Notes: a model not told the origin generated them from the letters alone. A stretch of DNA of 64,000 nt from an uncultured Pseudomonadota bacterium (GCA_963840785.1 CAWJAF010000003.1:23682-87681), one strand, 5' to 3'. Counted from the first letter of the stretch, positions 10,002-25,311 are shown. Translations and numbers: made by a program.

Positions 10002-11160
10002 GTGAGTCCATTGCAGAAATATCGCCGCCGAATCACCGTGGTACGACTTATTTTCGCGCGGCGCGCGCGATTGGTTGCGTCATAACGAAAAAGTCCGCGA
10101 CGCCGTTAAACAAAGCCTGCCGGATCTGGTCAGCGGCCCCGATGCGCTAACGAATACACAAGATCGTACCGTCGTTGTACCAGTGAAATTATTGGAGCAC
10201 GCGCGCTTTCGTCTCGCCGATGCAGACGAGCAAACCGGCGTCGGACAGGGCAAAGGCGAACCCGGCGATATCTTGCGCCCAGGCCAAGATCCAGGCGGTG
10301 GCGACGAAACCGGACAAGGCGGCAACGGCCAAGGCGAATTCCAATTAGCGATGGAATTTCAAATGGACGAAATCGTCGATTGGTTGTGGGAAGAATTAAA
10401 GTTACCGGATCTCAAGCCAAAACAAAGTCCGTCGCTTAACGAAGCAGACTGGGTGCGCGAAGGCTGGGATAAGCATGGCCCGCGCGCGCGCCTGGATCGG
10501 CGCCGTACGATGAAAGAAGCAATTAAGCGCCGCGCCGTGCAACCGGGTGCTGCGCCATTCACCAACGACGATTTGCGCTTTCGCCAAATCACGCAAAAGC
10601 CGAAACCGTCAAATCATGCCGTGGTTATTTTCGGCTTGGATGTTTCCGGCAGCATGGCGGAAACCCAGCGCAAACTCGCCAAGACATTTTTCTTTTTCGC
10701 CTTGCAAGGCGTGCGCCGCGAATATGCGCACGTCGAAACGGTATTCCTCGCCCACACCGACGATGCCTGGGAATTTTCCGAGCAGGAATTTTTTAAAGCC
10801 AGCGGAACAGGTGGCACCGTCGCTTCGTCGGTGTTTCGCTTGAGCCTGGATATTTTCAATGACCGCTTCGCTGCCAATCGCTATAACCGTTACTTGTTTT
10901 ACGCTTCCGACGGTGAAAATTTTCGCGAGGATCGCACGCCCGCGACCGCGTTGCTGACCGAGCTGGCGCAACAAATCAACTACATCGGCTATGCGCAAAC
11001 CGGCATGATCGGCCCCGGCGCGGCACAAACGGAACTCGCACAAATTGCGAGTGAACTGCAACGCGAAGGCTTGCCGATCAGTTACGCCTATCTATCGCGC
11101 CACGAAGATATTTGGAATGCGATTCGGACGTTTTTTCAAGAGCAGGCAGCCGCCGCGTGA
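10002..11160 (+). CDS. yeaH: YeaH/YhbH (DUF444) family protein; the 5' end needs a frame change or a non-canonical start
   Basis: Body ORF 10075..11160 (TTG start) carries RHNEKVRDAVKQSLPDLV, a Gly-rich acidic loop and a vWA-like VVIFGLDVSGSM. The conserved-looking WYDLFSRGARDWL lies in frame upstream of the TTG but has no ATG/GTG/TTG; an in-frame TGA sits at 10003-10005. A GTG at 10002 in the neighbouring frame reads MSPLQKYRRRIT. Confidence 0.8.
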
Positions 11161-12530
11161 CGACACTAAATTCGTATGCCGAGCAAATCGAAGCACTGGC
11201 GCAAAAGTTGGGCCTCGACTATTATGCCGTCGATTTCGAAATGGCGCCGCCGAGTTTCATGTTGGAAATTGCGTCGTACGGCCTGCCCGTGCGCATGCCG
11301 CACTGGTCGTTCGGCGTGCGCTACATCCATCAGATGATTCGCCAAACTATGGGCCACTCGCACATTTTCGAAGTGATGTTTCCAGGCGATCCGTGCCATG
11401 CGTATTTGGTCAACACCAACTCCATGGCGGAGAATGCGTTGGTCACCGCGCACGTGTTGGGTCACGCGGATTTCTCGAAAAATAATCAACTGTTCGCACG
11501 GCATCAAGAGATGGCGGGCGGCCATATTTTGGAACAAGCGGCGGCGCATGCGAATCGTATCGAACAAGCATTCGCCAAACATGGCATCGCAAAAGTAGAA
11601 GCTGTGATGGACGCCGCGCTGGCGCTCGAACCGCACGTCGACACGAATCACGATCTACATCGCGCGCGCTACGCCGCAAAAGCAATCAAGCCAGAAGCCG
11701 CACCACAAGCCGAGTTTCAGGCACGCTTTGCCACGTTGCCCGGTGGGAGCGGCGTTTCACGCGCCCTGCCCGCAGCACCACTCCCCATGGCTGTTCCACC
11801 GCATGCCGAATATGATTTGCTGTGGTTCATCGCCAACTATGCGCCCGAGTTGGACGAATGGGAACGCGATATTTTTCTCGCCGTGCGCGAAGAATCATTT
11901 TATTTTTATCCTGTGTTCGCGTGCCAAATTATGAACGAAGGATGGGCATCTTACTGGCACGCGCGACTGTTGCGGGAAGCGGATTTTCTGCCGCAAGAAT
12001 TGTATTTGAGCGCGATCAAAGCCCACTCCGATGTCGTGCGCCCGATCGCCGGCGAACAGCAAATCGCGCTCGCAGTGAATCCGTATCACTTAGGTTTCTC
12101 GATGTGGGAACACATCGTCGAGGAACAAGGCATCGACGCTGCGCGTCGCATTTGCCGCGAAGAAGACGACTTCGGATTTGTTCGCAATCATTTGAATGCC
12201 GATCTCGCCGACAAGCTAGGACTGTTCGTTTACCAAGCCAAACAAGACGGCGAAGTCAAAGTGCTGAACCGCGACATCAACGCCGTGCGCGAATCGATCA
12301 TAGGCAATAAATTCAACTACGGCTCGCCGCGCATCGCCGTTACGGAAATGAAAAATGACGGCAGCTTAGTATTGAAACACGATCACGGCGATGATGGTCG
12401 CGGCTTGGACATCGAGCGTGCGAATCAAGTGTTGAAATATGTCGCGCGCGTTTGGCGGCGGCCAGTTACGCTGCAAACGGTCGATGCCAAAGGTCAGCCA
12501 CGAGAACTAAGCGCAAATCGATCCCATTAA
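11157..12530 (+). CDS. spoVR: SpoVR/YcgB family protein
   Basis: GTG 11157 overlaps the yeaH stop (GTGA). LPVRMPHWSFG, AHVLGHADF and NEGWASYWHARLL are SpoVR hallmarks. Confidence 0.9.
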   Translation: MTTLNSYAEQIEALAQKLGLDYYAVDFEMAPPSFMLEIASYGLPVRMPHWSFGVRYIHQMIRQTMGHSHIFEVMFPGDPCHAYLVNTNSMAENALVTAHVLGHADFSKNNQLFARHQEMAGGHILEQAAAHANRIEQAFAKHGIAKVEAVMDAALALEPHVDTNHDLHRARYAAKAIKPEAAPQAEFQARFATLPGGSGVSRALPAAPLPMAVPPHAEYDLLWFIANYAPELDEWERDIFLAVREESFYFYPVFACQIMNEGWASYWHARLLREADFLPQELYLSAIKAHSDVVRPIAGEQQIALAVNPYHLGFSMWEHIVEEQGIDAARRICREEDDFGFVRNHLNADLADKLGLFVYQAKQDGEVKVLNRDINAVRESIIGNKFNYGSPRIAVTEMKNDGSLVLKHDHGDDGRGLDIERANQVLKYVARVWRRPVTLQTVDAKGQPRELSANRSH

Positions 12531-12787: not shown

Positions 12788-13066
12788 ATGGAATTTGAGT
12801 GGGACGCCAAATAAGCCGCTTCGAATCTTCGTAAACACTATGTGAGTTTTGAAGACGCCGCTCGAGTATTCCTTGATCCGAACCGTATCGAAACTTTCGA
12901 CGGTCGAGATGCCTACGGCGCAGATCGCTGGAAAACCGTAGGTCTGGTCGAGCCCGCTTTGTTGGCCGTTGTTTACACCATTCGCGGCAATGACGGCGAG
13001 ATTATTCGATTGATATCAGCCAGAAAGGTAGATGCCCATGAGCGCGCGCAATACCGTGAAGTTTAA
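12788..13066 (+). pseudogene. brnT: BrnT-type (DUF497) ribonuclease toxin with an in-frame TAA at codon 9
   Basis: ATG 12788 reads MEFEWDAK-TAA(12812-12814)-AASNLRKHYVSFEDAARVFLDPNRIETFD... in a single frame. The ORF track only picks up the GTG restart at 12842. Confidence 0.7.
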
Positions 13067-13355
13067 ACTAGACCCCAAGAAACCGGTTCCGTTGAGCACT
13101 GCGCAACAAAAGCGTCTGGCTGTCGTGGCAGCCATGCCGGATACCGACATTAGCTACAGCGATATTCCGCGGCAACAAGGTGCGATCCAATGGAAAAGGC
13201 CGGGCGCCTTGGTGTCCTCTGAAAATAAGCAACAGGTCACGCTACGACTGGATGCGGATGTATTGAGTTTCTTTAAAGAAACCGGCAAGCGTTATCAAAG
13301 TCGGATTAACGCGGCGTTACGTGAGTACGTCAAAGCGCACCGTAAATCGGCGTAG
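13038..13355 (+). CDS. brnA: BrnA-type antitoxin (C-terminal RHH/CopG-like)
   Basis: Overlaps the toxin 3' end. QVTLRLDADVLSFFKETGKRYQSRINAALREYV is the BrnA signature as I recall it. ATG 13038 sits 9 nt after AAAGG. Confidence 0.75.
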   Translation: MSARNTVKFKLDPKKPVPLSTAQQKRLAVVAAMPDTDISYSDIPRQQGAIQWKRPGALVSSENKQQVTLRLDADVLSFFKETGKRYQSRINAALREYVKAHRKSA

Positions 13356-13807: not shown

Positions 13808-13834
13808 GCCAGTATTGCTTTGTAATTCAATTTG

Positions 13835-13855
13835 TTGTGTTGCGTCGCAACACAA
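13835..13855. promoter_or_regulatory. Perfect 10-bp-arm palindrome in the pmoC-like leader (operator or 5'-UTR hairpin)
   Basis: TTGTGTTGCG-T-CGCAACACAA, 55 nt upstream of ATG 13910. Confidence 0.4.
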
Positions 13856-13909
13856 ACGCAAGTTACCAAAGCAAACGACGCAATAATTAATCTTCCTGAG
13901 GAGAAGTTC

Positions 13910-14707
13910 ATGTCGATTGCAGCAACAAGTCTAATAGGCGGATCGGCCCAAGCTGGCGCGGAACGTCAAGCGGGGCACTACGTAAAATTCAATCTATTTC
14001 TATTGACGATCGCGCTATTGACGATCATGTTCGTCTGTTATCGCCTTTATCAGCAAGCTTACGGCTGGTCGGCAGGGCTGGATGTGACGCAACCGGAATT
14101 CGAAAAATATTGGATGACCTTAGTGAAGATACAGTTGCCGGTGCTATTCGGACTGTCTGCTCTATGCTGGGGTTACCTCTGGGTGACACGCGAACGCAAT
14201 ATGGCGGCACTGGATAAACGCGTTGAGCTGCAGCGCTACTTCACCTTTACCATGTGGTTGGTCGCCTACACGTTCGCGGTCTATTGGACGACGAGTTTTT
14301 TTGGCGAAGGCGATGGCGTATGGCACCAAACCGTTATTCGCGATACCAGCTTCACTCCGAGCCATGTCGTGCTGTTCTATGCCTGCATACCCACCTACAT
14401 TTTCTTCGGCGTCGGTAGCTTTATTTACGCTATGACACGTTTGCCGGCCTTCTCCAGAGGCATTTCTGTCGCTCATGTCCTTGGAGTGCTTGGGCCTTTC
14501 CTAATTTTGCCTAACCTTGGATTCAACGAATGGGGGCATGCCTATTGGCTCACAGAGGAAATTTTCTCCCATCCGCTGCACTGGGGATTCGTAGTGCTAG
14601 GCTGGAACGCCCTCGCCCTGCCGGGCGTCGCGATACAGATTTTGCAACGCTTAATCGTACTGTTCCGCGATTTGTTCGGCGTAACGATTGCGAAAGCCTC
14701 GCAGTAG
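13910..14707 (+). CDS. pmoC: Copper membrane monooxygenase subunit C (PmoC/AmoC family)
   Basis: GEGDGVWHQTVIRDTSFTPSH (Asp/His/His metal-site stretch) and EEIFSHPLHWGFV are family hallmarks. SD GAGGAG lies 6 nt before ATG 13910; the ORF-track TTG at 13832 is probably too far upstream. Confidence 0.9.
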   Translation: MSIAATSLIGGSAQAGAERQAGHYVKFNLFLLTIALLTIMFVCYRLYQQAYGWSAGLDVTQPEFEKYWMTLVKIQLPVLFGLSALCWGYLWVTRERNMAALDKRVELQRYFTFTMWLVAYTFAVYWTTSFFGEGDGVWHQTVIRDTSFTPSHVVLFYACIPTYIFFGVGSFIYAMTRLPAFSRGISVAHVLGVLGPFLILPNLGFNEWGHAYWLTEEIFSHPLHWGFVVLGWNALALPGVAIQILQRLIVLFRDLFGVTIAKASQ

Positions 14708-14788
14708 ACTAAATACGCGCCGCATTGACGGCGCGAAAATTACAAATGCGTGGGCGCAATGCCCGCGCAAAAAAACTAGGAGGAGAAA

Positions 14789-15601
14789 ATGTTAGCGATC
14801 AATCGACAAGTGCTTGATGCATCCGGCTTGCCACCCGAGGCTGCGCGCCTTTCCCGTATCTGGGAATGCTTCGTTGTAGCTGGGGTAATCCTTCTGTTCA
14901 TGGGCGCTATTCATTTGCATGTGTTGCTCACAGTCGGCGACTGGGATATGTTTATCGATTGGAAGGATCGCCAGTATTGGGTGTTGGTCACGCCGGTCTC
15001 GATGATCATGATTCCCGTCGCGCTGCAAGCGGTGTTCTGGCATTACTTTCGCTTGCCGATCGGCGCAACCGTCGGCGCCGTCGTGTTGTTTCTTGCGACC
15101 TGGATAACGCGGTACGTTGGGTGGCACCTATGGGGCCATTTCCCGTTTAGCATGAACATCCCAGCGACAATGCTGGCCGGGGCGTTGGCCTTGGACGCGA
15201 TCCTGTTGATTGTGCGTAATCCGTTACTCGTGGCAACTTTCGGCGGTTTTGCCTTCGCCATGCTGTTCTACCCGAGTAACTATGCATCGCTAGCACCTTA
15301 TTACGTGCCGATCGAGCATCAGGGCATGATCGCCTCCGCTGCCGATATGATCGGCTATGTGTTTCCGCGCGCCGGTACGCCCGAGTACATCCGCATTATC
15401 GAGCGCGGCACGCTGCGAACATTTGAAGGTACCTCGGTTTGGGTATCGACCGCATTCGCCGGATTCATTTGTATTTTCATGCATATGATTTGGTGGCGTA
15501 TCGGGATCGCATTCTCGACGCAAAAATTTGTGCCTACCTCCAAGGGAATAAAGGCCATGATGGGTTTACACGACGACAAGCCCGTCCCACAAGCTAGCTA
15601 G
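14789..15601 (+). CDS. pmoA: Copper membrane monooxygenase subunit A (PmoA/AmoA family)
   Basis: GDWDMFIDWKDRQYWVLVTP and RAGTPEYIRIIERGTLRTF are hallmarks. Multi-TM protein. SD AGGAGGAG. Confidence 0.9.
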   Translation: MLAINRQVLDASGLPPEAARLSRIWECFVVAGVILLFMGAIHLHVLLTVGDWDMFIDWKDRQYWVLVTPVSMIMIPVALQAVFWHYFRLPIGATVGAVVLFLATWITRYVGWHLWGHFPFSMNIPATMLAGALALDAILLIVRNPLLVATFGGFAFAMLFYPSNYASLAPYYVPIEHQGMIASAADMIGYVFPRAGTPEYIRIIERGTLRTFEGTSVWVSTAFAGFICIFMHMIWWRIGIAFSTQKFVPTSKGIKAMMGLHDDKPVPQAS

Positions 15602-15611
15602 AGAAAACGCC

Positions 15612-16874
15612 ATGATAAAGAAATTATTCTGTGCGGTGCTAGCACTGCTAACGCTTGCGTTCGTCCCCGAGCAACCTGCCGAAGCGCACGGTGAGCGTGC
15701 GCAGGAACCCTACCTGCGTACCCGCACCGCCCATTGGTATGACGTAAAATGGACGGCTCAATCCGTCGGCGTTAACCAAGACCTAATCGTCTCCGGCAAA
15801 TTCCGATTGTTCAGCGATTGGCCCGACGCGGTTGACCTACCCGCAACCGTTTTCGTTAGCAATGCGACGCCAGGGCCGGTTTTCGCGCGCGTCGAATCGT
15901 CTCTCAACGGCGTGCCGGCAAGGCAATCGTTTCGCGATCTGGAGATTGGCCGCGACTACGAATACAAAATGGTTTTGCGCGGGCGGGTGCCTGGGCGCTA
16001 TCACGTTCACCCGATGATCGCAGTGAAAGGTTCCGGCCCGCTCGTCGGTCCCGGTGCGTGGGTTGATATTACCGGAAACGAAAAAGACTTTAAGTTTCCG
16101 ATGCAAGCGATTTCCGGCGAAGTTATCGAAGACTTGCAAACCTGGGGCGTAAGAAACGCGGTGACTTGGCAAGTGATGTGGTTTGTAATCGCGGCAGCGT
16201 GGCTGATTTGGTGGTTGCGAAGGCCGTTGTTGATTCCGCGTTATTTAGTTTTGCAAAAAGGCCGCGAAGATTTGTTGATCACAAAACTCGATCTTAAAGT
16301 CGCGGTGGTGCTGTTATTAGGCGTGGTCATCCTCGCCTTTGGAAGTTATAACTGGGCAAGCAATCAGTGGCCGAAAACCGTGCCGCTACAAGCGGGCACG
16401 ATGAAGACACCGCCATTACCGTTTGAACGCTCGCCCGTGAATGTCGTCGTTAAGGAAGCCCTCTACGACGTGCCCGGTCGATCAATGCGTGTGGCCATGA
16501 GCGTCAACAATATCAGCGACAAGCCTCTACGAATCGGGGAATTTGCGACCGCGAGTTTGCGCTTCGTCAACGGCAATCTGGACGTCGCGAAGGCCAATGT
16601 CGACCCGAATTTTCCGCGCGAGTTAGTGGCTCGCAAAGGTTTAATATTAAGTGACGATAGCGTCATCGAACCCGGCCAAACCAAGGAAATCAAGTTCGAG
16701 GCAACCGATGCCGCTTGGGAAATCGAGCGATTGACCAGCTTTCTGACCGACGTCGACAGCAAGTTCGGCGGATTGTTGTTTTTATTCGACAACATGGGCA
16801 AACGCTATATCGCGGAAATTGGAGCGCCCATTTTGCCCGTGTTTCGCGACGTAAAGCTCGCGGCAAATAATTGA
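15612..16874 (+). CDS. pmoB: Copper membrane monooxygenase subunit B (PmoB/AmoB family)
   Basis: Signal peptide ending AEA, then HGERAQEPYLRTRTAHWYDVKW. GRYHVHPMIAV gives the HxH motif. Two internal TM helices and a C-terminal cupredoxin-like region. Confidence 0.9.
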   Translation: MIKKLFCAVLALLTLAFVPEQPAEAHGERAQEPYLRTRTAHWYDVKWTAQSVGVNQDLIVSGKFRLFSDWPDAVDLPATVFVSNATPGPVFARVESSLNGVPARQSFRDLEIGRDYEYKMVLRGRVPGRYHVHPMIAVKGSGPLVGPGAWVDITGNEKDFKFPMQAISGEVIEDLQTWGVRNAVTWQVMWFVIAAAWLIWWLRRPLLIPRYLVLQKGREDLLITKLDLKVAVVLLLGVVILAFGSYNWASNQWPKTVPLQAGTMKTPPLPFERSPVNVVVKEALYDVPGRSMRVAMSVNNISDKPLRIGEFATASLRFVNGNLDVAKANVDPNFPRELVARKGLILSDDSVIEPGQTKEIKFEATDAAWEIERLTSFLTDVDSKFGGLLFLFDNMGKRYIAEIGAPILPVFRDVKLAANN

Positions 16875-17458
16875 TGTTGGTTCGTCGAGGCGAGTGCCGC
16901 TGGCTGCTTTGTGCACTCGCCTTTCTGGCAACATTTGGCATAACGAGCGCTAACGCCCACGGCGGCCTAGCAATGGACGCCGACTTCTGCAAATTGCGTG
17001 TCGGCCGCTACCTCATGCATTTTGTTGGTTATCAACCGGATAGCTCGAACGCGACCAAAGAGTTCTGCGAAGACATTCCGGAAACCGGCGCGACGATCAT
17101 CGTGCTCGATTATATTGATGACGCCTTGCGCGATCTCCCGACGGAAGTTCGGGTGATTCGGGATACGGGTGACGAATCGAATCTCGAGGCCGTAAGCGTG
17201 TTTCATTTGCCCGCGAAGGTCTATCCCAGCGGTTCGCTTTCTCTCGAACATAATTTCAAGGAAGGTGGCCGCTACGTCGGCTTGGTCACCGTCCATGGGC
17301 CGGAGAAATACGTGTCGCGGTTCCCTTTTTCCGTGGGCAAGCCTAGCTTTAAGTGGCTGCAAATTGTCGGCGCCATTGTGGTGATAGCAGCCGGAGCGGC
17401 GCTGTATTGGTTTGCGCAGCGACAGCGTGCCCGTCAAACGGGACGTGGAGCCGCGTAG
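16874..17458 (+). CDS. Anchored periplasmic protein with PmoD/AmoD-like architecture (signal peptide, ~140-aa domain, C-terminal TM)
   Basis: ATG 16874 overlaps the pmoB TGA (TGATG). Signal peptide ends SANA/HGG. FCKLRVGRYLMHF is a Cys...Met-His cluster. C-terminal helix WLQIVGAIVVIAAGAALYWF followed by an RQRARQ patch. Homology to PmoD is not verified. Confidence 0.5.
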   Translation: MLVRRGECRWLLCALAFLATFGITSANAHGGLAMDADFCKLRVGRYLMHFVGYQPDSSNATKEFCEDIPETGATIIVLDYIDDALRDLPTEVRVIRDTGDESNLEAVSVFHLPAKVYPSGSLSLEHNFKEGGRYVGLVTVHGPEKYVSRFPFSVGKPSFKWLQIVGAIVVIAAGAALYWFAQRQRARQTGRGAA

Positions 17459-18304
17459 ATTCCAAGCGCGATTCGATGTTTCGCACTGACGTTTCTTGCG
17501 TGCGTTATATCGGCCTGCAGTGATAGCGATCAAATAAATCACACCATTCAGCCTGCCAACTTCACATACACTGGCGATGAGCGGGATGGTCACTGCGATC
17601 CCAAGCTCAAGCCAGGGCGCGGCGGTCTAACAAACGGCGAACGTAGTGCGAAAGGCGTTCGCTATAACGTCCGCGCGCCGCTAAATTACGATCCGACCCA
17701 TCGCCACGGACTGATCATGGTTTACGCCCCCGCCGCAACAAGCGCCGTACAAACCGAACGGCTGATGCATTTCACGCAACAGGCAACAGGTGCCGGATTC
17801 ATTGTCGCCTACGCGGATCATGTAACGCTCGGGTTGCCCGCTGCGCGAGAACTCGCAACGATTCCACAGCGCATAAGCGAAAAATGGTGCGTCGACGCGA
17901 AACGGATTTTTCTGACCGGGCATTCCGATGGCGGAACCATATCGCATATCGCGTCATTGCTACCCGAGAATCGCGATACCGTTCAAGGCATTGCGCCAAG
18001 CGCCGCCGGTGTTGTCGCCGCCGATCTGCAAACCTACGGATGCCGTAAGCCCTCGCCGGTGTTGATTATGCATAGCAAAAACGATTCGTTGTTTGCAGGT
18101 TTCGGCACCCAAACTGCGCAATGGTGGGCGCACTGTAATCGCTGCGACATCACCCGGAAGGAACCTTTAGCAAATGGCTGTATTGCGTATCAGGGATGCG
18201 CCACCGGAGCGCCAACATGGTATTGTGAAGGCGACGCTGGTCATCGCACTTGGCCGGACAGAAATGGGACGCTAATCGATTTTTTCGGCAAACAAATGAA
18301 CTGA
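17459..18304 (+). CDS. Lipoprotein alpha/beta-hydrolase esterase (PHB-depolymerase/LpqC-like), probably ATT-initiated
   Basis: ORF track starts at 17717, but the frame is open from 17459 and reads (I/M)PSAIRCFALTFLACVISAC/SDSD, a lipoprotein signal with lipobox ISAC. GGAG lies 8 nt before ATT 17459. Nucleophile elbow GHSDGG and C-terminal GDAGHRTWP. Confidence 0.65.
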   Translation: MPSAIRCFALTFLACVISACSDSDQINHTIQPANFTYTGDERDGHCDPKLKPGRGGLTNGERSAKGVRYNVRAPLNYDPTHRHGLIMVYAPAATSAVQTERLMHFTQQATGAGFIVAYADHVTLGLPAARELATIPQRISEKWCVDAKRIFLTGHSDGGTISHIASLLPENRDTVQGIAPSAAGVVAADLQTYGCRKPSPVLIMHSKNDSLFAGFGTQTAQWWAHCNRCDITRKEPLANGCIAYQGCATGAPTWYCEGDAGHRTWPDRNGTLIDFFGKQMN

Positions 18305-18312
18305 CCATATCT

Positions 18313-18705
18313 ATGAATTTTCGACTAACTGCGGTTATTAATCGAATTCTGATCGCCTGCATTGTGACCCTGTCGCTGCTCAGCGCTAGCGAATCTTACG
18401 CCCACGCAAAGCTGGTCAAATCCGATCCTGGGCGCCGCGCTGTGATCAAAACATCACCGAAAGAAATTCGCCTTTGGTTTAACGAGAAACTCGAGGCGGC
18501 CTATTCCTCCGCGACGTTATCCGAAGGCAGCGGAAAAACGATAGCCACCGCGCCAGCGACCATTACCAACGACGATCCAAAGCGCATGACTCTCACTATC
18601 GATAAACTTCTGCCCGGTGTCTACCGCGTTAAATATCGCGTTCTATCGGTCGACGGCCATGTAGTGGACTCTAGCTTCACGTTCACCGTCCAACCGGCGC
18701 AATGA
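18313..18705 (+). CDS. copC: CopC-domain periplasmic copper-binding protein
   Basis: Signal peptide ends SYA, then HAKLVKSDPGRRAVIKTSPKEIRLWFNEKLE...YRVLSVDGHVVDSSFTFTV, the classic CopC fold signature with an N-terminal His. Confidence 0.85.
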   Translation: MNFRLTAVINRILIACIVTLSLLSASESYAHAKLVKSDPGRRAVIKTSPKEIRLWFNEKLEAAYSSATLSEGSGKTIATAPATITNDDPKRMTLTIDKLLPGVYRVKYRVLSVDGHVVDSSFTFTVQPAQ

Positions 18706-20648
18706 TCGAATGGGTCGGCCCCATTGCGCGTTGGCTGCATCTAATTTCCGGCGCACTCGCGTTCGGCGCCATGTGGTGGCTCACGCGCGGGACATTAACG
18801 GCGAACCGGCAAAATAATATTTGGCGCAGCCTGCCATGGCTACTGATATTGTTTATTGGCACGGCGCTCGTCGTGCTTGCCGGCCACACGGCCCAGGCGC
18901 TGGGCACAACAGGTTTTTCGATCAGCCTCAGCGAAGTTTCAAGGTTCGCATTTCAAACCCAATTTGGAAATGTTTGGTTGGGTCGCCTGATCGTCGCAGC
19001 GCTCCTGCTGATTTATTTGTTTGCCACTCGTTCACGCGCAGTAATCGCCACACTCATTGTCGTTGGCATTTTGCAGGCTTCGCTCGCGCTCGCAGGCCAC
19101 GGCGTGGCATCGGACGCGCCCATTCTGGCGCAAGTTTGCCATGCCGCTCATGTGCTCGCAGCGAGCGCTTGGCTCGGCGGACTGGCAACAATGCTCAGTG
19201 GAATGGCCACAACCCGGTTGTTGGATAACGTGACGCGCTCAGCGAAAGACATGCGTGTGTTTTCCGAATTCGCCCTGTCCTGCATGATCGTCATCGTGAT
19301 GAGCGGCATCGCGATTGCCGCGCTGCAAATTCAGAGTTGGCCTGGACTATTCGGAACCAATTACGGCGAACGATTACTCATTAAAATCGCGTTACTGCTT
19401 GCCGCGCTCGCGATTGCCGCACATCTGCGTTGGCGCACCCTCAAGACGATTGATGTAAGCCTCGCCGACCCGACAAAACGCCGCAACCTCGCGCAATGGC
19501 TTGCCGTTGAGCTCATTTTCGCCATTGCCATTATCTGGATGGCCGCATCCCTCGCCGTCACACCACCCGCGCAACACGAGCAAATCAACTGGCCCTTCGC
19601 ATTTCGAATTGCGCCGGAGGTGACCTGGCCGAAACCAGATCTGCAAGCGCAATTCTGGTGGGGCCTGGCGATCATTGCGGCAGGTATTGCTTGGATGGGG
19701 TGGTCCTGGCGACAATTCGGCCTGCATCGGCGCGACGTCCTTCTCGGCATTGCCGTTGCCGGACTGGGCGTTTGGATTGCCATTCCGGCACTGAGCGTCC
19801 CGGCTTTTCCGGATACCTATCGACGCAGCAGCGTGCCTTACCAATCCATTTCAATCGGCCAAGGCCAGCGCCTCTTCGCGCAACATTGCGTGAACTGCCA
19901 CGGCATCGATGCCACCGGCAATGGCGCGCTGGCGAAAAGTCTGCCGAAGCCGCCGGCCGACCTGACCGCACCCCATACTGGCGATCACACTGCCGGCGAT
20001 ATGTTCTGGTGGCTGACGCACGGCATGGCCAACACCGGTATGCCCGCGTTTCCGCAACTGAGCGAAGAAGATCGTTGGGACCTGGTGAATTTCGTACACA
20101 CCCTGGCCACCGGCTACGAAGCACGTGTCATTCGCGAACGCATCGTGCCCATGCGCCCATGGTTAGGGGCGCCGGATTTCAACTATGTCGCGAATGATGG
20201 CTCGAGCGGTTCGCTAAAACACTTTCGCGAACGAGGATCGGTCTTGTTGATACTATTCAGCGAGAAATCCAGCGCACGGCTCGAACAACTTAGCGAAGTC
20301 AGTTCAACGCTTGCTAAATTCCGCACTCAGATCATCGCCGTTCCGCTAGAATCTGCACCCATATCGACGACAAAGTTTGCGTTTCCCATCATCTCCGAAG
20401 GCGGCGAAGACATTGCACGTAGTTACCAGTTACTGCGCCGAACCATCGAGAATCCTCGATTGGGCGAGCGAGCGCCGCGACCGACTCACATGGAGTTTCT
20501 GATCGATCGCTATGGGTACCTGCGTGGGCGCTGGTTGCCCGAGGACACCGAGCCCGGCTGGCGCGACAAGCGCAATCTAGTTGCTCAAGTGGAACAACTC
20601 GCACGCGAACCGCGCGTTAAACCGCCGCCAGACGAACACTTACATTAA
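18702..20648 (+). CDS. copD: CopD-family membrane protein fused to a mono-haem cytochrome c domain and a ~190-aa C-terminal domain
   Basis: ATG overlaps the copC stop (ATGA). About 10 TM segments of CopD type. Then QRLFAQHCVNCHGIDATGNG...HGMANTGMPAF (CxxCH plus Met). The tail GSVLLILFSEKSSARLEQL looks thioredoxin-fold-like but has no Cys pair. Confidence 0.8.
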   Translation: MIEWVGPIARWLHLISGALAFGAMWWLTRGTLTANRQNNIWRSLPWLLILFIGTALVVLAGHTAQALGTTGFSISLSEVSRFAFQTQFGNVWLGRLIVAALLLIYLFATRSRAVIATLIVVGILQASLALAGHGVASDAPILAQVCHAAHVLAASAWLGGLATMLSGMATTRLLDNVTRSAKDMRVFSEFALSCMIVIVMSGIAIAALQIQSWPGLFGTNYGERLLIKIALLLAALAIAAHLRWRTLKTIDVSLADPTKRRNLAQWLAVELIFAIAIIWMAASLAVTPPAQHEQINWPFAFRIAPEVTWPKPDLQAQFWWGLAIIAAGIAWMGWSWRQFGLHRRDVLLGIAVAGLGVWIAIPALSVPAFPDTYRRSSVPYQSISIGQGQRLFAQHCVNCHGIDATGNGALAKSLPKPPADLTAPHTGDHTAGDMFWWLTHGMANTGMPAFPQLSEEDRWDLVNFVHTLATGYEARVIRERIVPMRPWLGAPDFNYVANDGSSGSLKHFRERGSVLLILFSEKSSARLEQLSEVSSTLAKFRTQIIAVPLESAPISTTKFAFPIISEGGEDIARSYQLLRRTIENPRLGERAPRPTHMEFLIDRYGYLRGRWLPEDTEPGWRDKRNLVAQVEQLAREPRVKPPPDEHLH

Positions 20649-20669
20649 TTTTTCACCTATGGATCAAAA

Positions 20670-21101
20670 ATGAAACTTTCGTCTCTTTGTAAAAATACCG
20701 CACTCGCGATTGCCACCGTGTTTGCGCTCAACGCCAGCAATGCGCAAGCCCACAGCGACGATTATTTCGATGCCAATCCGTCGCCTCACGGCGGCCAAGT
20801 TCGCATGTCCGGTGCCTATCATTTTGAATTGCTGATGGATGAAAAAGAAATCGTCGTTTACGTGACCGATCATGGCAATCAACCCATCGCCAGCACCGGC
20901 GCGACCGGGACGCTGGAGATTAAGACCGGAAGTAAAAAAACTGTTATTGAGCTTGCGCCCGGCGAGGGAAACATTCTCAAGGCGAACGCCCCTTGGCCGG
21001 GAACGCCGTCGCCGGATTTGAATGCGCAACTCAGCGTAACTTTCCCTAACAAAAAACCCGCCAAGGCAAAATTTACGCCGTTCGCGAAGCGACGTAAGTA
21101 A
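20670..21101 (+). CDS. Small secreted protein of unknown function (mature N-terminal His)
   Basis: Signal peptide ends AQA/HSDD. HGGQVRMSGAYHFELLMDEKEIVVYVTDHGNQP. Lys-rich tail. Confidence 0.6.
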   Translation: MKLSSLCKNTALAIATVFALNASNAQAHSDDYFDANPSPHGGQVRMSGAYHFELLMDEKEIVVYVTDHGNQPIASTGATGTLEIKTGSKKTVIELAPGEGNILKANAPWPGTPSPDLNAQLSVTFPNKKPAKAKFTPFAKRRK

Positions 21102-21254: not shown

Positions 21255-21872
21255 TTGGTTCGTCAAAAACAATCCGCTGAGCTAGAAACCATCAACGGCA
21301 GCAAGCGCAAACTGGTGTGCGATGCCGCCATTCGTGTGTTTATCGAAGACGGCTATAGCGCGAGCATGGAAAGCATTGCTGCGCGCGCCGGCGTCGCCAA
21401 GCAAACGCTGTACAACCAATTTGGCAACAAAGAAAGTTTGTTTGCAGAAGTGATTCGCCAGAGCGTCGACGATATTACTGTTTCGCTCGGCGAACCGAGC
21501 GCGGATTTGCGCCGCTCCTTGCTACGTTTCGCCGCGGCATTTCGTGCCAAGGCACTGTCGCCCTATGGACTGGGAATGCATCGCGCGCTGATTGCTCAGG
21601 CGCCAAGATTTCCAAAATTGGCGCGGATCGCCCACGAGAAAGGCGCCGCCAATGCGCGCGATACCCTCGCGAAATTTTTACAGCAAGCGATGGATACGGG
21701 AAAATTGCGCAAAACCGATTCGCAATTTGTCGCGGAGTTATTGCTCGGCATGCTCGCAGGCTTCGAGCGCGTACGCTTGTTGTACGGCGTCAAAACCGAT
21801 CCAACATCGCTGAATGAAAAACAGAAATGCGTTGCCATCGTTGATTGTTTTTTAAACGGTTTGGCAGCTTAG
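21255..21872 (+). CDS. TetR/AcrR-family transcriptional repressor
   Basis: N-terminal HTH KLVCDAAIRVFIEDGYSASMESIAARAGVAKQTLYNQFGNKESLF. TTG start preceded by GAGGAT. Confidence 0.85.
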   Translation: MVRQKQSAELETINGSKRKLVCDAAIRVFIEDGYSASMESIAARAGVAKQTLYNQFGNKESLFAEVIRQSVDDITVSLGEPSADLRRSLLRFAAAFRAKALSPYGLGMHRALIAQAPRFPKLARIAHEKGAANARDTLAKFLQQAMDTGKLRKTDSQFVAELLLGMLAGFERVRLLYGVKTDPTSLNEKQKCVAIVDCFLNGLAA

Positions 21873-21923
21873 GATTTAAAACTAAAGCGGTACAAAACAT
21901 AAATCGTTGAGGAGAAGTAGATC

Positions 21924-24900
21924 ATGCGTTCGTACATTGAATTTATCGTCAAATTTCGTTGGATTGTCATTGCGCTGGTTGCGGCAGCGACGATATTTTT
22001 GAGTATGCGTGGATCCTCCTTGACGGTGATTATCGATCCGAACAGCATTGTTCCCAGGTCGCATCCATTCGTTGCGACCACACTCAAAGTAGAAGAAGTC
22101 TTCGGTTCGCGTTACGTCGCGGTAATTGGCATTACACCGAAGACCGGCGACGTCTTTCAAAAAAGTGTGCTGGAAAAAGTTCAGCGCATCACCGCCGAAT
22201 TGCGTACAACGCCGCGCATCGTTAAAACCAATTTGCTATCAGTCTCGGCGCGCCGCGCGAAAGATATCGTCGGCACCGCAGAAGGCATGTCGGTAAAACA
22301 GATGATGACGGAAGTGCCGACAACGCCGGAAGGAATGGCCGAATTAAAAAAGGCATTACAGCGAAATACCGCCTACATGAATTCAGTCGTTTCGAACGAT
22401 TGGAAGACCATCACCATCCTTGCCGAAGTGCGCGACGCGAAGCCGGAAGAAAAGAAGTTAAAGATGGGCGGATTCTCATACATCGCCGCAAAGATTAATG
22501 CGATCGCCGATAAGGAAAGAGACGAAACCGTGGACATTGCGGTGACCGGCTATCCCGCGTTCTTGGCAATGATCGAGAAATATTCCGGGCGGATGAAATG
22601 GATGTTGCTCGCGGCACTAGTGATTATCGGTCTCATCCACTATGAGGCATTCCGCACCATTCAGGGTTTGATTCTGCCATTGCTCACGCCGCTCGTCGCG
22701 GTGGAGTGGAGTAAAGGCTTCATGGGATTGGCCGACGTGCCCCTTGATATTTTTAACATGTCGACGCCGATATTAATTTTAGCGGTCGGTGCCGGACACG
22801 CGGTGCAAATGTTGAAACGCTATTACGAGGAATATAACCGGCTCAATCCTAATCCGGAGCCCGCAGTCGGCCTGCCGCCGATTGCTGGAAGTACTTCGTC
22901 GAATCTGTTCGCATGGATCGGGATTTGGATTTTGTGCGCCCTTCCCTACGCATACTTCGCTTGGAACGGCGCGCCGGCTGGCCCTTGGATGCCCCTTTCT
23001 ATACTGCTTGCGTTGTTGCCGTGGATTTATTGCTATTGGATTCGTCCCTATAAGCTCGCCAGCGCGCAATCGATTCAAGCGAGCAGGCAAGCGGTTACCG
23101 ATTCGATCCTAAAGATCGGCCCGGTGATGATCACGGCCGGCTTGGTTGCCGCATGCGGATTTTTCTCGCTGTATGTGTTCGACATTATTTCAATCAAAGT
23201 GTTCGGCATATTCTCCGGGATCGGTATTCTGAGCGTGCTTATTGTCGAATTGACGCTCATTCCGGCGGTGCGCTCCGTGTTGCCCCCACCGCGCGAAAAA
23301 GAAGCCCGCATGGAACGTGAAGAGCGTTTCTGGGATCGCCTGACGAATTTCTATTCCAATACCTTGTTGGGCCCCAAACGTGATCGCATCTTTGTTGTCG
23401 CGGGTGTCGCCGTGATCATCGCCCTATTCGGCATGAACCGCCTCGCCGTTGAAAGTTCACTGAAAAAATACTTCGATCCGGAACTGCCGTTACTGCAAAG
23501 CGATGCTAAGCTGAACGAGCGCATGGCGGGCACGAATAACATTTATCTGTTGATCGAAGGTGACAAGGTCGATGCCATTAAAGATCCCGCCGTGTTAAAA
23601 GCGATGGATCAATTACAGGAATTCGTCGCCAAGCAACCGAACATCGGCAAGGTCATTTCGATCGCCGAATTCATTAAACGCATGAATCAATCGATGAATG
23701 GCGACGATCCCGCGTTCTTCAAAATTCCTGATAAGCAAGAAACCATCGCTGAATATCTGTTGCTTTATTCGATGTCGGGCGAGCCAGGGGATTTTGATCC
23801 CTATGTCGACTATGACTATCGCTTAGCCAATATGGTGGTATTCAGTCATAGCGACAGCACGTTAGAAATGCGTAAATTTTGGGAACAAACAAAAGCTTTT
23901 GCCGAGAAAACGTTCCCGCCGAACATCAAAGTGAACGTCGGCGGCAGCGTTGCGCAAAGTGCGGCGATTACCGAAGTGATTGTGAAGGATAAAATCCTGA
24001 ACGTTCTTCAGATCGCGTCAGTTGTGTTTGTGGTCGCGTCGTTGGTATTCCGTTCGCTGGCTGCGGGGCTGTTGGTCATTACGCCTTTGCTGCTCTCGGT
24101 AATCATTAACGTCGGCTTGATGGGCTTATTGGGCTTGCGCTTAAATGTTCCAACCGCGTTAACCTCCGCGCTCGCGATCGGCATCGGTGCCGACTATGCG
24201 ATTTATATGTTGTTCCGCCTGCGCGAAGAACTGGCCAAAGGCATCGACGAAGAACAAGCATTCCGTAACGTGATGCGCACCGCGGGAAAAGCCTGTTTGT
24301 TCGTTGCTTCTGCGGTCGCCGGTGGCTATGCGGTTCAGGCATTCTCGCGCGGCTACTATCCGCACACCTGGAACGCGCTATTGATTGGCACCGCGATGTT
24401 GGTCAGCGTAACGGCGGCGTTAACCGTTATGCCTGCGTTAGTTTTAAAATTCCGTCCTAAGTTTATTTTTAATGGAGCTAAAAATATGAAGTTATCCCCC
24501 GCTGCGGCTACTACAATTGCCGTTGCCGTTGTCGCCGTCTTGTCCTTTGGCCACACGAAATCCGCCTATGCGATCACGCCGGTCGAAATCATGGAGAAAA
24601 ACTTCATGGTTGCAAAAATCGCCGATACGACAACGCAGACCACGATGACCTTGACGAATAAATCGGGACAAAAGCGCGTGCGCAAAACTGCCGGCGTCAC
24701 CAAGCTCGAGCCGAATGGCATCGACAATAAGCGCATGACGCGGTTTCTTGAGCCGGCGGACGTGAAAGGCACGGTCTCATTGTTAAGCGAGCATTCGGAC
24801 AAAGACGACGATATTTGGATTTACCTGCCCAGCATCAAAAAAGTGCGCCGCCTCGTTTCCAGCAACAAAAAAGATAGCTTTGTCGGAACCGATTTTTCAT

Positions 24901-25298
24901 ACGGCGATGTGATCGGCCATAAGGTAAACGAATGGACTCACAAATTGATCAAGGAAGAAGACGTTGACGGTAAAATGGCCTATGTCATCGAATCCTTGCC
25001 GCGTGATGCGGCAATCAAAGCCAATTCGGGTTATTCAAAGCGCATGAATTGGATTCAAAAGGATAACTTCGTAACCCTCAAGGGAATGCAATACGACGAG
25101 GCGGGCGAATTGGTCAAGGAATCTCGCTTTGGGCGTTTCAGGAATGTCGATGCCGCTAAAGGCAAGTGGCTGACCGGCGAGCTAACAGTAAAAAATGTCC
25201 AAACCGAGCACACTACACACATTTATACTGACGATCTCAAATACAATATCGGCGTTAAAGACGATTACTTCACCACCCGTTACATGGAACAACAATAG
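21924..25298 (+). CDS. RND-superfamily (MMPL-type) exporter whose ORF continues in frame into a LolA-like domain
   Basis: 1124-aa ORF. The first ~850 aa has two 6-TM bundles with large periplasmic loops typical of MMPL/RND exporters. There is no stop before the LolA-like part. Confidence 0.8.
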   Translation: MRSYIEFIVKFRWIVIALVAAATIFLSMRGSSLTVIIDPNSIVPRSHPFVATTLKVEEVFGSRYVAVIGITPKTGDVFQKSVLEKVQRITAELRTTPRIVKTNLLSVSARRAKDIVGTAEGMSVKQMMTEVPTTPEGMAELKKALQRNTAYMNSVVSNDWKTITILAEVRDAKPEEKKLKMGGFSYIAAKINAIADKERDETVDIAVTGYPAFLAMIEKYSGRMKWMLLAALVIIGLIHYEAFRTIQGLILPLLTPLVAVEWSKGFMGLADVPLDIFNMSTPILILAVGAGHAVQMLKRYYEEYNRLNPNPEPAVGLPPIAGSTSSNLFAWIGIWILCALPYAYFAWNGAPAGPWMPLSILLALLPWIYCYWIRPYKLASAQSIQASRQAVTDSILKIGPVMITAGLVAACGFFSLYVFDIISIKVFGIFSGIGILSVLIVELTLIPAVRSVLPPPREKEARMEREERFWDRLTNFYSNTLLGPKRDRIFVVAGVAVIIALFGMNRLAVESSLKKYFDPELPLLQSDAKLNERMAGTNNIYLLIEGDKVDAIKDPAVLKAMDQLQEFVAKQPNIGKVISIAEFIKRMNQSMNGDDPAFFKIPDKQETIAEYLLLYSMSGEPGDFDPYVDYDYRLANMVVFSHSDSTLEMRKFWEQTKAFAEKTFPPNIKVNVGGSVAQSAAITEVIVKDKILNVLQIASVVFVVASLVFRSLAAGLLVITPLLLSVIINVGLMGLLGLRLNVPTALTSALAIGIGADYAIYMLFRLREELAKGIDEEQAFRNVMRTAGKACLFVASAVAGGYAVQAFSRGYYPHTWNALLIGTAMLVSVTAALTVMPALVLKFRPKFIFNGAKNMKLSPAAATTIAVAVVAVLSFGHTKSAYAITPVEIMEKNFMVAKIADTTTQTTMTLTNKSGQKRVRKTAGVTKLEPNGIDNKRMTRFLEPADVKGTVSLLSEHSDKDDDIWIYLPSIKKVRRLVSSNKKDSFVGTDFSYGDVIGHKVNEWTHKLIKEEDVDGKMAYVIESLPRDAAIKANSGYSKRMNWIQKDNFVTLKGMQYDEAGELVKESRFGRFRNVDAAKGKWLTGELTVKNVQTEHTTHIYTDDLKYNIGVKDDYFTTRYMEQQ
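24486..25298 (+). other. LolA-like 'outer membrane lipoprotein-sorting protein' module with its own SD, ATG and signal peptide, in frame with the RND ORF
   Basis: GGAG lies 8 nt before ATG 24486. MKLSPAAATTIAVAVVAVLSFGHTKSAYA/ITPVEIMEKNF. Also DIWIYLPSIKKVRRL and DGKMAYVIESLPRD...YSKRMNWIQKDNF. Confidence 0.7.
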
Positions 25299-25311
25299 CG
25301 ATTGGAGCCCT

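Follow-up and report, generated by a model that had tools for sequence, protein, structure and literature searches.

Predicted N-terminal histidines in four exported proteins of an extended amoCABD-copCD cluster, among them AmoD and a 143-aa protein of an unnamed family

In an extended copper membrane monooxygenase operon, four exported proteins are predicted to mature with histidine as their first residue, and two of these, AmoD and a 143-aa protein that appears to found an unnamed, widespread family, are candidates to handle copper alongside AmoB and CopC. The operon occupies 13.8 to 21.1 kb of the window, by which we mean the whole 64,000-nt stretch of DNA that was analyzed, as a single co-directional, tightly packed cluster in the order amoC-amoA-amoB-amoD-(lipoprotein hydrolase)-copC-copD(cyt c)-small ORF (Table 1). 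It is of the AMO/pMMO type and the amoCABD-copCD kind, and its carrier is an uncultured Burkholderiales-like lineage, as placed by nearest MAGs only. Public gene callers give the same genes on the identical contig, and the four ORFs of main concern (AmoB, ORF 16874, CopC, and ORF 20670) are on the plus strand where the first-pass annotation of this DNA had put them.

Table 1. Genes of the cluster in window coordinates, with the predicted signal peptides and mature N termini of the four His-first products
Feature	Coordinates	Strand	Evidence	Signal peptide	Predicted junction	Codon of first mature His
amoC, CuMMO subunit C	13910..14707	+	PF04896 4.6e-94; NF041641 AmoC_BACT 353.9 vs cutoff 319			
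amoA, CuMMO subunit A	14789..15601	+	PF02461 2e-78; AmoA_BACT 278, under cutoff 290			
amoB, CuMMO subunit B	15612..16874	+	NF041640 541.3 vs cutoff 336; PF04744 461.6 bits vs 22.7	15612-15686	MIKKLFCAVLALLTLAFVPEQPAEA/HGER	His26, 15687-15689
amoD, PmoD/AmoD family, Cx8MHxnC subclass (ORF 16874)	16874..17458	+	6CPD phmmer E = 3.2e-24	28 aa (ATG at 16874)	MLVRRGECRWLLCALAFLATFGITSANA/HGGL	His29, 16958-16960
esterase/PHB-depolymerase-like lipoprotein	17459..18304	+	weak NF050058/PF07859 matches, GHSDG, lipobox			
copC, Cu(II)-only (C0-1-like) type	18313..18705	+	PF04234 2.8e-22	30 aa (ATG at 18313)	MNFRLTAVINRILIACIVTLSLLSASESYA/HAKL	His31, 18403-18405
copD + cytochrome c domain + Cys-less AhpC/TSA-like domain	18702..20648	+	PF05425, PF00034, PF13442, weak PF00578			
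143-aa exported protein, unnamed family (ORF 20670)	20670..21101	+	no Pfam or NCBIfam match	27 aa	MKLSSLCKNTALAIATVFALNASNAQA/HSDD	His28, 20751-20753

The packing includes overlaps of 1 nt, where the amoD ATG shares a base with the amoB stop, and of 4 nt, where the copD start overlaps the copC stop as ATGA, and gaps of 8 to 21 nt, the last being the distance from copD to ORF 20670. The longest amoC ORF runs from 13832, the public call being 265 aa from 13910, and AmoC has the D-x3-H-x12-H metal motif. AmoA is only 38 to 39% identical to AmoA of Nitrosomonadaceae (beta-AOB). A promoter scan gave nothing above background, and a terminator scan gave nothing informative.

The first-pass annotation had claimed that all four proteins mature with His1, and this prediction is supported by structure N-termini for AmoB and CopC and by alignment boundaries. 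Each of the four is predicted to have a Sec-type signal peptide with small residues at -3 and -1 and with His next. In alignments to the mature chains of solved structures, residue 1 falls on His26 of AmoB (9CL6_A, 9PXF_A, 3CHX_A, and 7S4M_A) and on His31 of CopC (5ICU_A, 9C14_A, and 1M42_A). A home-made (-3,-1)/hydrophobicity cleavage scorer failed to find the AmoB site that is known from experiment, ranked a different site highest in three of the four proteins, CopC and the small ORF among them, and was dropped as unreliable; the sites given here rest on solved-structure N-termini and alignment boundaries. The cluster's fifth exported protein, the esterase-like lipoprotein, is predicted to mature with Cys, not His. 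Eight other exported proteins of the window begin, as judged by eye, with D, A, V, A or C, A, A, V, and C, giving His+1 in 4 of 5 within the cluster versus 0 of 8 among the others (hand-computed Fisher p ~0.007), and the His-first pattern is above chance expectation. In seven further genomes with an orthologous cluster, AmoB and AmoD both have His+1, as does every CopC whose N terminus was read. Two clusters from MAGs of beta-proteobacterial ammonia oxidizers (L031 and L079) and the present one have His first in every soluble exported amo-cluster product, the products meant being AmoB, AmoE, AmoD, CopC, and the new small protein. A proposed rule takes His1 immediately after a signal peptide as the mark of a metalloprotein (PMC12537917).

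A cut by signal peptidase I directly before His would leave a free alpha-amino group next to the imidazole, and therefore the bidentate chelate of a histidine brace. In PmoB/AmoB and CopC, His1 is established as a bidentate ligand of copper, and the first-pass annotation is correct on this point; both proteins are aligned here to solved mature chains. The window AmoB retains the CuB ligand set of pMMO (3RGB) and AMO (9CL6), an N-terminal His and an HxH pair (HVH, residues 131 to 133), and by homology to solved structures its CuB site is the predicted N-terminal His with H131 and H133. AmoB itself has no relevant difference from those systems; it is the whole enzyme that is divergent, with AmoA below its equivalog cutoff. 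CopC scores 79.9 bits versus 23.3 for PF04234 and 85.4 for the NCBIfam copper_CopC equivalog, under the cutoff of 95, which makes it by profile a CopC-domain protein and not the named equivalog. The Met-rich Cu(I) site of the two-site C1-1 class is absent, the mature protein having a single Met, and we therefore assign it to the Cu(II)-only class. H1, D84, G85, and H86 are invariant among amo-linked CopC orthologs (8 sequences), and His1, D84, and H86 are predicted, from homologous solved structures, to form the high-affinity Cu(II) site of CopC. Methylosinus CopC (5ICU) and the CopC domain of YcnJ (9C14) likewise have His1 and the D-G-H site and no Met-rich Cu(I) loop. As in the Cu(II)-only class, the window copC is directly upstream of copD and overlaps it, but the CopD partner here has cytochrome c and thioredoxin-fold domains.

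ORF 16874 had been taken as uncharacterized, and is instead recognizable from its sequence as AmoD/orf5 of the PmoD/AmoD copper-protein family. It shares with PmoD (6CPD) a signal peptide, a cupredoxin-like domain with two invariant Cys, a C-terminal TM helix (hydrophobic segment IVGAIVVIAAGAALYWF, read from the sequence), and the position after amoB, and Foldseek matches its AF2 model to 6CPD with E = 1e-13, TM 0.82 to 0.86, and an rmsd of ~2 Å. Its motif C-KLRVGRYL-M-H is Cx8MH; Cx8MHxnC is assigned to amoD, and Cx7MxHxnC marks amoE/pmoD (Fisher et al. 2018, PMC6189053). Candidate ligands in the mature protein are H1, M6, C11, M20, H21, and C37, with C11 and C37 invariant in the homolog alignment. 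The homologs have variable leaders of 9 to 47 aa and an invariant His-to-Cys spacing, and His+1 is present in 118/118 full-length sequences, in all of them directly preceded by A/S/T/V/G/L/I at -3 and A/G/S/C at -1. H1, G2, G3, and L4 are invariant, in a stretch (residues 1 to 8) with AF2 pLDDT < 50 that is predicted to be a disordered tail. AmoE in beta-AOB MAGs has the junction AA/HGKVS.

The predicted N-terminal His of AmoD and AmoE has been overlooked. A conserved "H1" is tabulated in Supplementary Data 2 of Fisher et al. 2018 (PMC6189053), the text of which never treats H1 as a ligand, and a literature search for AmoD or PmoD together with the histidine brace found no papers. Several PmoD classes bind copper in vitro, CuA being formed by the Cx7MxH class only, and the classes reported as tested include no Cx8MH representative (Fisher et al. 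2018, PMC6189053). The crystallized Methylocystis PmoD, the sole member studied biochemically, is of the Cx7MxH class and, unlike the window AmoD, is without His1 (LRA/EGGAG...), yet it forms a CuA site. All constructs of Fisher et al. 2018 had an extra N-terminal Ser-Met, which would block any N-terminal chelate.

The 143-aa protein has as conserved residues of its mature form H1, H13, M19, H24, E26, D40, and H41, and its family comprises at least 530 representative clusters at 50% identity. Among the representatives aligned at that identity (n = 145), His+1 is found in 138, H24 in 140, E26 in 143, D40 in 134, and H41 in 136; the closer homologs have His+1 in 128/128. The 138 with His+1 have Ala at -1 in 123 cases and Ala or Val at -3 in 118. 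Conservation of His1 among orthologs of the two further proteins was the check proposed in the first-pass annotation, and it holds for both AmoD (118/118) and this family (138/145). Loss of H24 or H41 is seen in 4/7 representatives lacking H1 versus 9/138 bearing it (p = 0.0012, with kinship ignored). The AF2 model, with pLDDT 92.4, is an 8-strand beta-sandwich in which M19, invariant among the closer homologs, is opposite H24 in a predicted hairpin; by hairpin registry only, H1, H24, and H41 may cluster in space. As candidates for a second brace ligand we note H24, D40, and H41 in this protein and H21 in AmoD.

ORF 20670 has no relative in Pfam, NCBIfam, or the PDB, 128 family members give no consistent Pfam match, and Foldseek on the model gives no match at E ≤ 1e-3. 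The matches in PDB profile searches are to designed "Pizza" propellers only, by way of a short VYVTDH word, and are spurious. Homology to CopC was rejected by an hhalign probability of 0.7% against the CopC profile, identity as CusF by the CusF_Ec domain (PF11604) going unmatched and by the 8-strand sandwich of the model, and membership in YcnI/DUF1775, DUF4198, or DUF6702 by their not being among the Pfam matches of the query and 128 homologs.

Several known systems nevertheless resemble it in part. YcnI (DUF1775), paired in Bacillus subtilis with the CopC-CopD fusion YcnJ, is also a small beta-sandwich with an N-terminal His chelate beside a CopCD importer, but the 143-aa protein has no sequence or profile relationship to it (no DUF1775 match, and no YcnI by description among the top 50 Foldseek entries) and is predicted to be soluble, whereas YcnI is membrane-anchored. 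CusF, the chaperone of CusCBA, is like the 143-aa family in being small, periplasmic, and in an HME-RND efflux operon, and the family has conserved His and Met; CusF, however, has the OB fold and the present model that of an Ig-like sandwich, with no PF11604 match, the gene comes after the RND gene and not between cusC and cusB, and CusF-like genes are separately present in some islands. The "signal-strapping" families DUF4198, DUF6702, and Ang-1/Ang-2 have in common with it a signal peptide, invariant His1, and a beta-sandwich, and they are proposed to capture metal or pass it to a membrane transporter (Nat Commun 2025). They differ in that the 143-aa protein has no Pfam match and none of them appears by description in the Foldseek top 50, and in the partner transporters, which are HupE/UreJ for those families and HME-RND or CopD here. 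The best fold-level matches of the model to small metal proteins are Helicobacter pylori CrdA (CopC-like, 9LL2) and Tp34 (2O6C), with TM 0.50 and 0.59 and a Foldseek E of only ~1e-2. CrdA is encoded with a Czc-type pump and has no His at all.

Genomic context gives independent support for the copper assignment of ORF 20670. At 50 of 81 reference loci, the family member is directly downstream of a TIGR00914 HME-RND pump (CusA/CzcA-type), and the pump-linked Cu/Ag islands contain genes for a CopA-type multicopper oxidase with CopB, a P1B-1 Cu/Ag ATPase (CPC, YN..P, MxxSS), and CusF-like proteins. Six further loci, in two Burkholderiales, three Nitrosomonadaceae, and one Nitrospiraceae, have it close to amo genes, either following copCD or next to it, and the nitrifier clade of the family is not pump-linked. 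The closest reference-genome homolog (78% over the mature protein) is away from copper genes, between ApbA and TRAP transporter genes. A tblastn search against plasmids returned three weak, unannotated Azospirillum matches, and a literature search on Nitrosomonas europaea copD and the next gene by guessed locus tags found no papers.

The explanation that we consider probable for the whole cluster is that of an amo operon with four His1-first proteins in which AmoD and the 143-aa protein bind copper and CopC passes it to CopD. The CopD permease would receive Cu from CopC, and its fused cytochrome c domain could reduce it. AmoD, membrane-anchored and cupredoxin-like, would bind copper near the enzyme through its flexible, invariant H1-G-G-L tail with C11, M20, and H21. 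The 143-aa protein would be a soluble periplasmic beta-sandwich binding a metal, most likely copper, at a putative site of H1, H24, and D40-H41, to which M19 and E26 may contribute, and may buffer copper or exchange it with CopC/CopD in the manner of YcnI-YcnJ in Bacillus, where Cu(II) exchange provides a precedent (PMC12154828). Elsewhere, the family would mostly serve a CusA/CzcA-type efflux pump, being beside copCD in nitrifiers and in this clade. The first-pass proposal that both further proteins handle copper is partly supported, by the family of AmoD and by the genomic context of ORF 20670, for which we infer copper, and its reading of the block as one copper unit agrees with the field's existing hypothesis for amoCAB-amoD-copCD, which is likewise inferential. 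That unit is not uniform, since it has a Cys+1 lipoprotein inside it, and the small ORF is absent from the related amoCAB-amoD-copCD clusters L087 and L088.

The chief competitor is a role for the 143-aa protein in efflux or detoxification, whether as an accessory of the pump or as a Cu(I)/Ag(I) chaperone akin to CusF; it would here only shield the periplasm from excess copper and have no part in AMO supply, its shared His1 being coincidental in function. We think this somewhat unlikely. The pump linkage of most of the family (50/81 loci), the core OMF-MFP-RND-small operon that goes without CusF, the dispensability of the gene in related amo clusters, and the invariance of M19 facing H24, as in His/Met Cu(I) sites, all favor it, but two separate clades have the gene directly after copCD or next to it, the nitrifier clade has no pump link, and the window copy is without the His-rich C-terminal tail of pump-linked members. 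Distinctly less probable is that His1 of AmoD, the small protein, or both binds Ni or Zn instead, or serves in structure or in docking to a partner. DUF4198 and DUF6702 have His1 and yet prefer Ni, pump typing by PDB similarity scores the pump as close to the Zn pump ZneA as to CusA, one locus (L017) has the family member with a CsoR/RcnR-like repressor and a CDF transporter (assigned by eye), and the AmoD tail is predicted to be disordered; set against these, the neighbors that can be typed are copper-specific (CopA/CopB, the P1B-1 ATPase, CusF-like, copCD, and amo genes), and several PmoD classes bind copper in vitro.

That the four His+1 arose by chance or from misplaced cleavage sites we hold to be extremely improbable and already largely refuted. 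The ranking of other sites by the heuristic scorer speaks for it, but it is opposed by the structure-based mature N-termini of AmoB and CopC, by an invariant His placed exactly where the variable leader gives way to the conserved domain in hundreds of AmoD and 143-aa homologs, and by the count of 0/8 among other exported window proteins (by eye). Returning to copper binding by the His-first proteins, a broader proposal that we put forward tentatively, at somewhat under an even chance, is that the 143-aa family consists of undescribed periplasmic beta-sandwich N-terminal-His copper binders that are the dedicated partner of a distinct CusA/CzcA-type pump class, co-opted as a CopCD partner for supplying or buffering AMO copper in nitrifiers and CuMMO-bearing Burkholderiales, and that a His copper site of AmoD/AmoE has been masked in all published recombinant constructs.

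The result gives two handles on how copper reaches and enters AMO/pMMO and on what AmoD, AmoE, and PmoD do. The His-first exported set suggests a Cu(II) relay between N-terminal chelates, and a re-examination of AmoD and AmoE with native N-termini is called for. The unannotated 143-aa family, with a confident fold and a candidate site, and tied to Cu/Ag efflux pumps and copCD, is a periplasmic metallochaperone candidate; should it not bind copper, the finding would come down to a neat restatement of an operon type already known.

Two further genes of the cluster have features of their own. The copD fusion has the identical architecture in L087 and L088 and full-length tblastn matches in Nitrosomonadaceae loci. 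The lipoprotein reading frame, open from the first codon past the amoD TAG, has no ATG, GTG, or TTG before 17717, with ATT at 17459 as a possible start; its translation contains a lipobox (VISAC/S) and GHSDG as nucleophile elbow, and homologs with both a Met and a lipobox are found at three loci (L008, L010, and L088).

What is new in the amo cluster at 13.8 to 21.1 kb of the window is a fourth, unannotated family of exported proteins whose predicted first mature residue is histidine (His+1, or H1), tied to copper efflux pumps and to copCD; earlier work already covers this type of operon, the sites in AmoB and CopC, and the AmoD family. The cluster is a closely packed gene set, and public gene callers predict the same genes on a contig of 8.4 kb with identical sequence. 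AmoC_BACT and AmoB_BACT scores exceed their NCBIfam equivalog cutoffs, and the AmoA_BACT score of 278 is slightly under its cutoff of 290. The spacing is operon-like, with amoB and amoD having one base in common (TGATG), copC and copD overlapping by ATGA, and gaps of 8 nt before copC and 21 nt before the small ORF. Also new is the gene arrangement, in which amoD occurs without amoE, a lipoprotein hydrolase gene is inserted and the small ORF comes last, within a CuMMO lineage that is divergent and Burkholderiales-like. The monooxygenase is divergent in its sub-cutoff AmoA score and in being 38-39% identical to Nitrosomonadaceae AmoA, and the presence of amoD and absence of amoE make this a gamma-type amoCABD cluster. 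By eye, no hydroxylamine oxidoreductase was conspicuous among the ORFs of the window, and several nearby genes suggest heterotrophy (transporters of TRAP and ABC type); the substrate could be ammonia or hydrocarbon.

Features of the window and of two loci in other genomes
Feature	Location	Strand	Remarks
PrkA kinase, DUF444 (YeaH-like), SpoVR-like	window 8043-12530	+	upstream of amo cluster
BrnT toxin/BrnA antitoxin	window 12842-13355	+	PF04365, PF14384; immediately 5' of amoC
amoC, amoA, amoB	window 13832-16874	+	Pfam and NCBIfam
amoD (ORF 16874)	window 16874-17458	+	no Pfam or NCBIfam match
esterase/PHB-depolymerase-like	window 17459-18304	+	fifth exported protein of the cluster
copC			Pfam/NCBIfam
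copD, fused to cytochrome c and weak AhpC/TSA-like domains	window 18702-20648	+	Pfam/NCBIfam
small exported protein (ORF 20670)	window 20670-21101	+	143 aa; no Pfam or NCBIfam match
TetR regulator, HAE3/MMPL-type RND transporter, DUF1302 protein	window 21255-26691	+	directly 3' of cluster
two Ig-repeat proteins and adjoining redoxin	window 41090-47155	-	Ig-repeat proteins 644 and 799 aa
AhpC/TSA-type redoxin	window 41090-41617		secreted
193-aa ORF	L012:3031-3612		no Pfam match
small His1 gene and metal-related ORFs	L017:8001-9773		no pump or copCD

The first-pass annotation had proposed that four secreted proteins here mature with an N-terminal His, two of them uncharacterised, and that all may handle copper. 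The junctions it quoted, PAEA/HGE in AmoB, SANA/HGG in ORF 16874, ESYA/HAK in CopC and NAQA/HSD in ORF 20670, are all found in the sequence, each with a positively charged n-region and a hydrophobic core upstream. Cleavage sites were judged from mature N-termini of solved structures and from family alignments, a home-made cleavage scorer being unreliable. The AmoB residue aligned with position 1 of the mature Nitrosomonas europaea AMO chain 9CL6_A and of several pMMO/AMO entries is His26, and the HxH pair completing the CuB site is at residues 131-133. In CopC, His31 matches the first residue of Methylosinus CopC (5ICU), the YcnJ CopC domain (9C14) and Pseudomonas CopC (1M42) in alignment; H1, D84, G85 and H86 are invariant in 8/8 CopC sequences (6 amo-linked and 2 solved), and no Met-rich loop was found in the CopC of the window. 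Homology shows that H1 serves as a copper chelate in AmoB and CopC. By eye, His+1 occurs in 4 of the 5 exported proteins of the cluster versus none of the 8 elsewhere in the window, whose first mature residues are D, A, V, A or C, A, A, V and C. Seven orthologous clusters read alike, with A/HGER in AmoB, A/HGGL in AmoD (C/HGGL in L008; L-numbers are loci in other genomes) and A/HA in CopC wherever its N-terminus was read, and AmoE of beta-AOB MAGs has AA/HGKVS. Judged by the junctions read there, L031 and L079 each have five exported proteins in the extended amo cluster that start with His.

ORF 16874 proved not to be uncharacterised, being AmoD, of the PmoD/AmoD family, by its match to the PmoD crystal structure 6CPD (E = 3.2e-24), its fold and its motif. 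Superposition of the AF2 model (pLDDT 86) on 6CPD gives TM 0.82-0.86, and the protein has the family's signal peptide, invariant pair of Cys and C-terminal TM helix. The motif is C-x8-M-H-xn-C, which has been assigned to amoD/orf5, with Cx7MxH assigned to amoE and alpha-methanotroph pmoD (Fisher et al. 2018, PMC6189053). We took the best 120 of 1482 homologues, and all 118 full-length ones have His directly after a small-residue -3/-1 pair, with the His-to-Cys spacing fixed at 10; H1, G2, G3, L4, D9 and C11 are invariant. Residues 1-8 have AF2 pLDDT below 50, and an invariant tail modeled as disordered in the apo monomer is consistent with a metal- or partner-binding element.

This histidine has a history. 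In Supplementary Data 2 of Fisher et al., an 'H1' column is marked positive for NE0941/NE2060 (amoD), NE0942/NE2061 (amoE), Noc_2500 and most other members, and 'HGGL' occurs in 106 sequences of their FASTA file (PMC6189053). Because the FASTA sequences show a single His upstream of C1, 'H1' is most likely our His+1, which that column had thus already catalogued. Their text discusses only Cys/Met/His motifs, every construct carried an extra N-terminal Ser-Met (PMC6189053), and the 6CPD chain begins three residues before the first Cys. The new point is an invariant His at the predicted mature N-terminus of both AmoD and AmoE, which the published constructs would have hidden. Unlike AmoD, Methylocystis close homologues of the crystallised PmoD are without His1 (…LRA/EGGAGPEAMSMGNMC). 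In the open-access literature we found no paper linking AmoD or PmoD with 'histidine brace', and a 2026 AMO review does not mention one for them.

The small protein of ORF 20670 does belong to an uncharacterised family. A word-indexed search gave 12 relatives, an exhaustive search gave 530 representative clusters at E <= 1e-3 and 138 at E <= 1e-10, and a profile search added 427 sequences. The source names shown were all 'hypothetical' or 'uncharacterized', with a Pfam domain in none, and Pfam run on 128 members gave nothing consistent. The proposed N-terminal His is conserved across the family, with His at the His+1 column in 138/145 representatives, Ala at -1 in 123, Ala or Val at -3 in 118, and a mean leader of 25 aa. 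Also kept (mature numbering) are H24 (140/145), E26 (143/145), D40 (134/145) and H41 (136/145), and among 128 closer homologues H1, P12, G15, Q16, M19, H24, E26, L27 and H41 are invariant. H24 or H41 is lost in 4 of the 7 sequences lacking H1 versus 9 of the 138 others (p = 0.0012, not corrected for phylogeny).

The AF2 model of the small protein (pLDDT 92.4, pTM 0.86) has a short N-terminal helix and an eight-strand sandwich, and from the hairpin registry we infer that M19, H24 and D40/H41 probably lie at one end of adjacent strands. Foldseek of the model against the PDB gave nothing at E <= 1e-3; the nearest small metal proteins, with E > 1e-3, were Helicobacter pylori CrdA (TM 0.50) and Tp34 (TM 0.59). 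A PDB profile search with the family gave spurious matches and nothing real, and a relationship to CopC was negative by hhalign.

The genomic neighborhood of the family was scanned in one genome per GTDB species, where 80 of 205 confirmed loci were kept and L006 was added to make 81. At 50 of the 81, the small gene is directly downstream of a CusA/CzcA-family RND pump (TIGR00914 above cutoff; TM4 motif AIGELVDDAVV[DG]VEN); about 40 of the 50 form an OMF-MFP-RND-small operon, and 38 loci have a response-regulator gene in the flanks. In Thiobacillus denitrificans a CopA-type multicopper oxidase and CopB come next after the small gene. An Undibacterium island has a P-type ATPase with YHS and HMBD domains and a CPC / YN..P / MxxSS signature, which we take to be that of Cu/Ag-specific pumps; such an ATPase is within 8 kb in 25 loci, and CusF-like genes are found in eight. 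Six loci have the small gene adjoining copCD in an amo context: Burkholderiales MAGs L008 and L010 of the window's clade, Nitrosomonadaceae L031 and L079 with amo(C)AB-amoE-amoD-copC-copD-small, Nitrosomonadaceae L073 with amoD-copC-copD-small, and Nitrospiraceae L083 with the small gene divergent from amoD-copC-copD. In a neighbor-joining tree, the copCD-linked genes form two separate clades, the window's and a nitrifier one. L087 and L088 have amoCAB-amoD-copCD without the small gene, which is therefore no fixed part of amo clusters.

Other arrangements were seen as well. Eleven loci labelled Nitrospira (L055, L059, L064, L065, L067, L068, L071, L072, L076, L078 and L086) have tandem pairs of divergent small His1 genes, the second copy forming a clade of its own in the tree; at L065, the one examined by eye, the pair is beside peroxiredoxin- and thioredoxin-like ORFs. 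A 78% homologue in L007 is flanked by ApbA and a TRAP transporter. In L017 the small gene is followed by ORFs resembling, by eye, a CsoR/RcnR-like repressor and a cation-diffusion-facilitator transporter, which, if correct, is a third kind of metal context. L012 and 40 other pump loci have a 193-aa ORF between the outer-membrane factor and membrane-fusion protein genes; its signal peptide in L012 ends before His (VYA/HGGEDHGD), and the MFP-fused form in L030 reads AFA/GGGDDHSHG.

A signal peptide followed by His1 is an accepted metalloprotein marker, and such sites can prefer Ni (PMC12537917), so copper specificity is argued here from genomic context only. In the mechanism we propose, CopC would capture Cu(II) and hand it to CopD; membrane-anchored AmoD, beside the enzyme, would bind copper with H1, C11, M20 and H21; and the small soluble protein would hold copper at H1, H24 and D40-H41 and either buffer it or exchange it with CopC. 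The exchange step is modeled on Bacillus YcnI/YcnJ, two histidine-brace proteins of a CopCD system that exchange Cu(II) (PMC12154828).

The CopD fusion includes further TM helices, a cytochrome c domain (CVNCH) and a thioredoxin fold that resembles AhpC/TSA but lacks Cys at its customary redox position. The same domains are in L087 and L088, and Nitrosomonadaceae copD genes (L031, L073, L079) match over the whole length. The fusion could reduce Cu(II) during uptake. The esterase-like protein matures with Cys. The called gene has 195 aa and begins at 17717, and the frame is actually open from the codon after the amoD TAG, opening with a perfect lipoprotein signal (…FLACVISAC/SDSD; IPSAIRCFALTFLACVISAC/S) without an ATG, GTG or TTG start. 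Its start is either ATT 17459, or the frame reflects a sequence error or read-through; the homologues from L008, L010 and L088 have both a starting Met and a lipobox.

Around the cluster, the BrnT/BrnA pair hints that a mobile or island-like segment may carry it, and the PrkA-DUF444-SpoVR triad is a conserved stress-response module. The genes directly 3' show no evident copper link; the RND transporter among them is 1124 aa with a long C-terminal extension. Farther along, the two large exported proteins adjoining the redoxin have an N-terminal cytochrome c-like CxxCH region and many ASH/Cep192-type Ig repeats.
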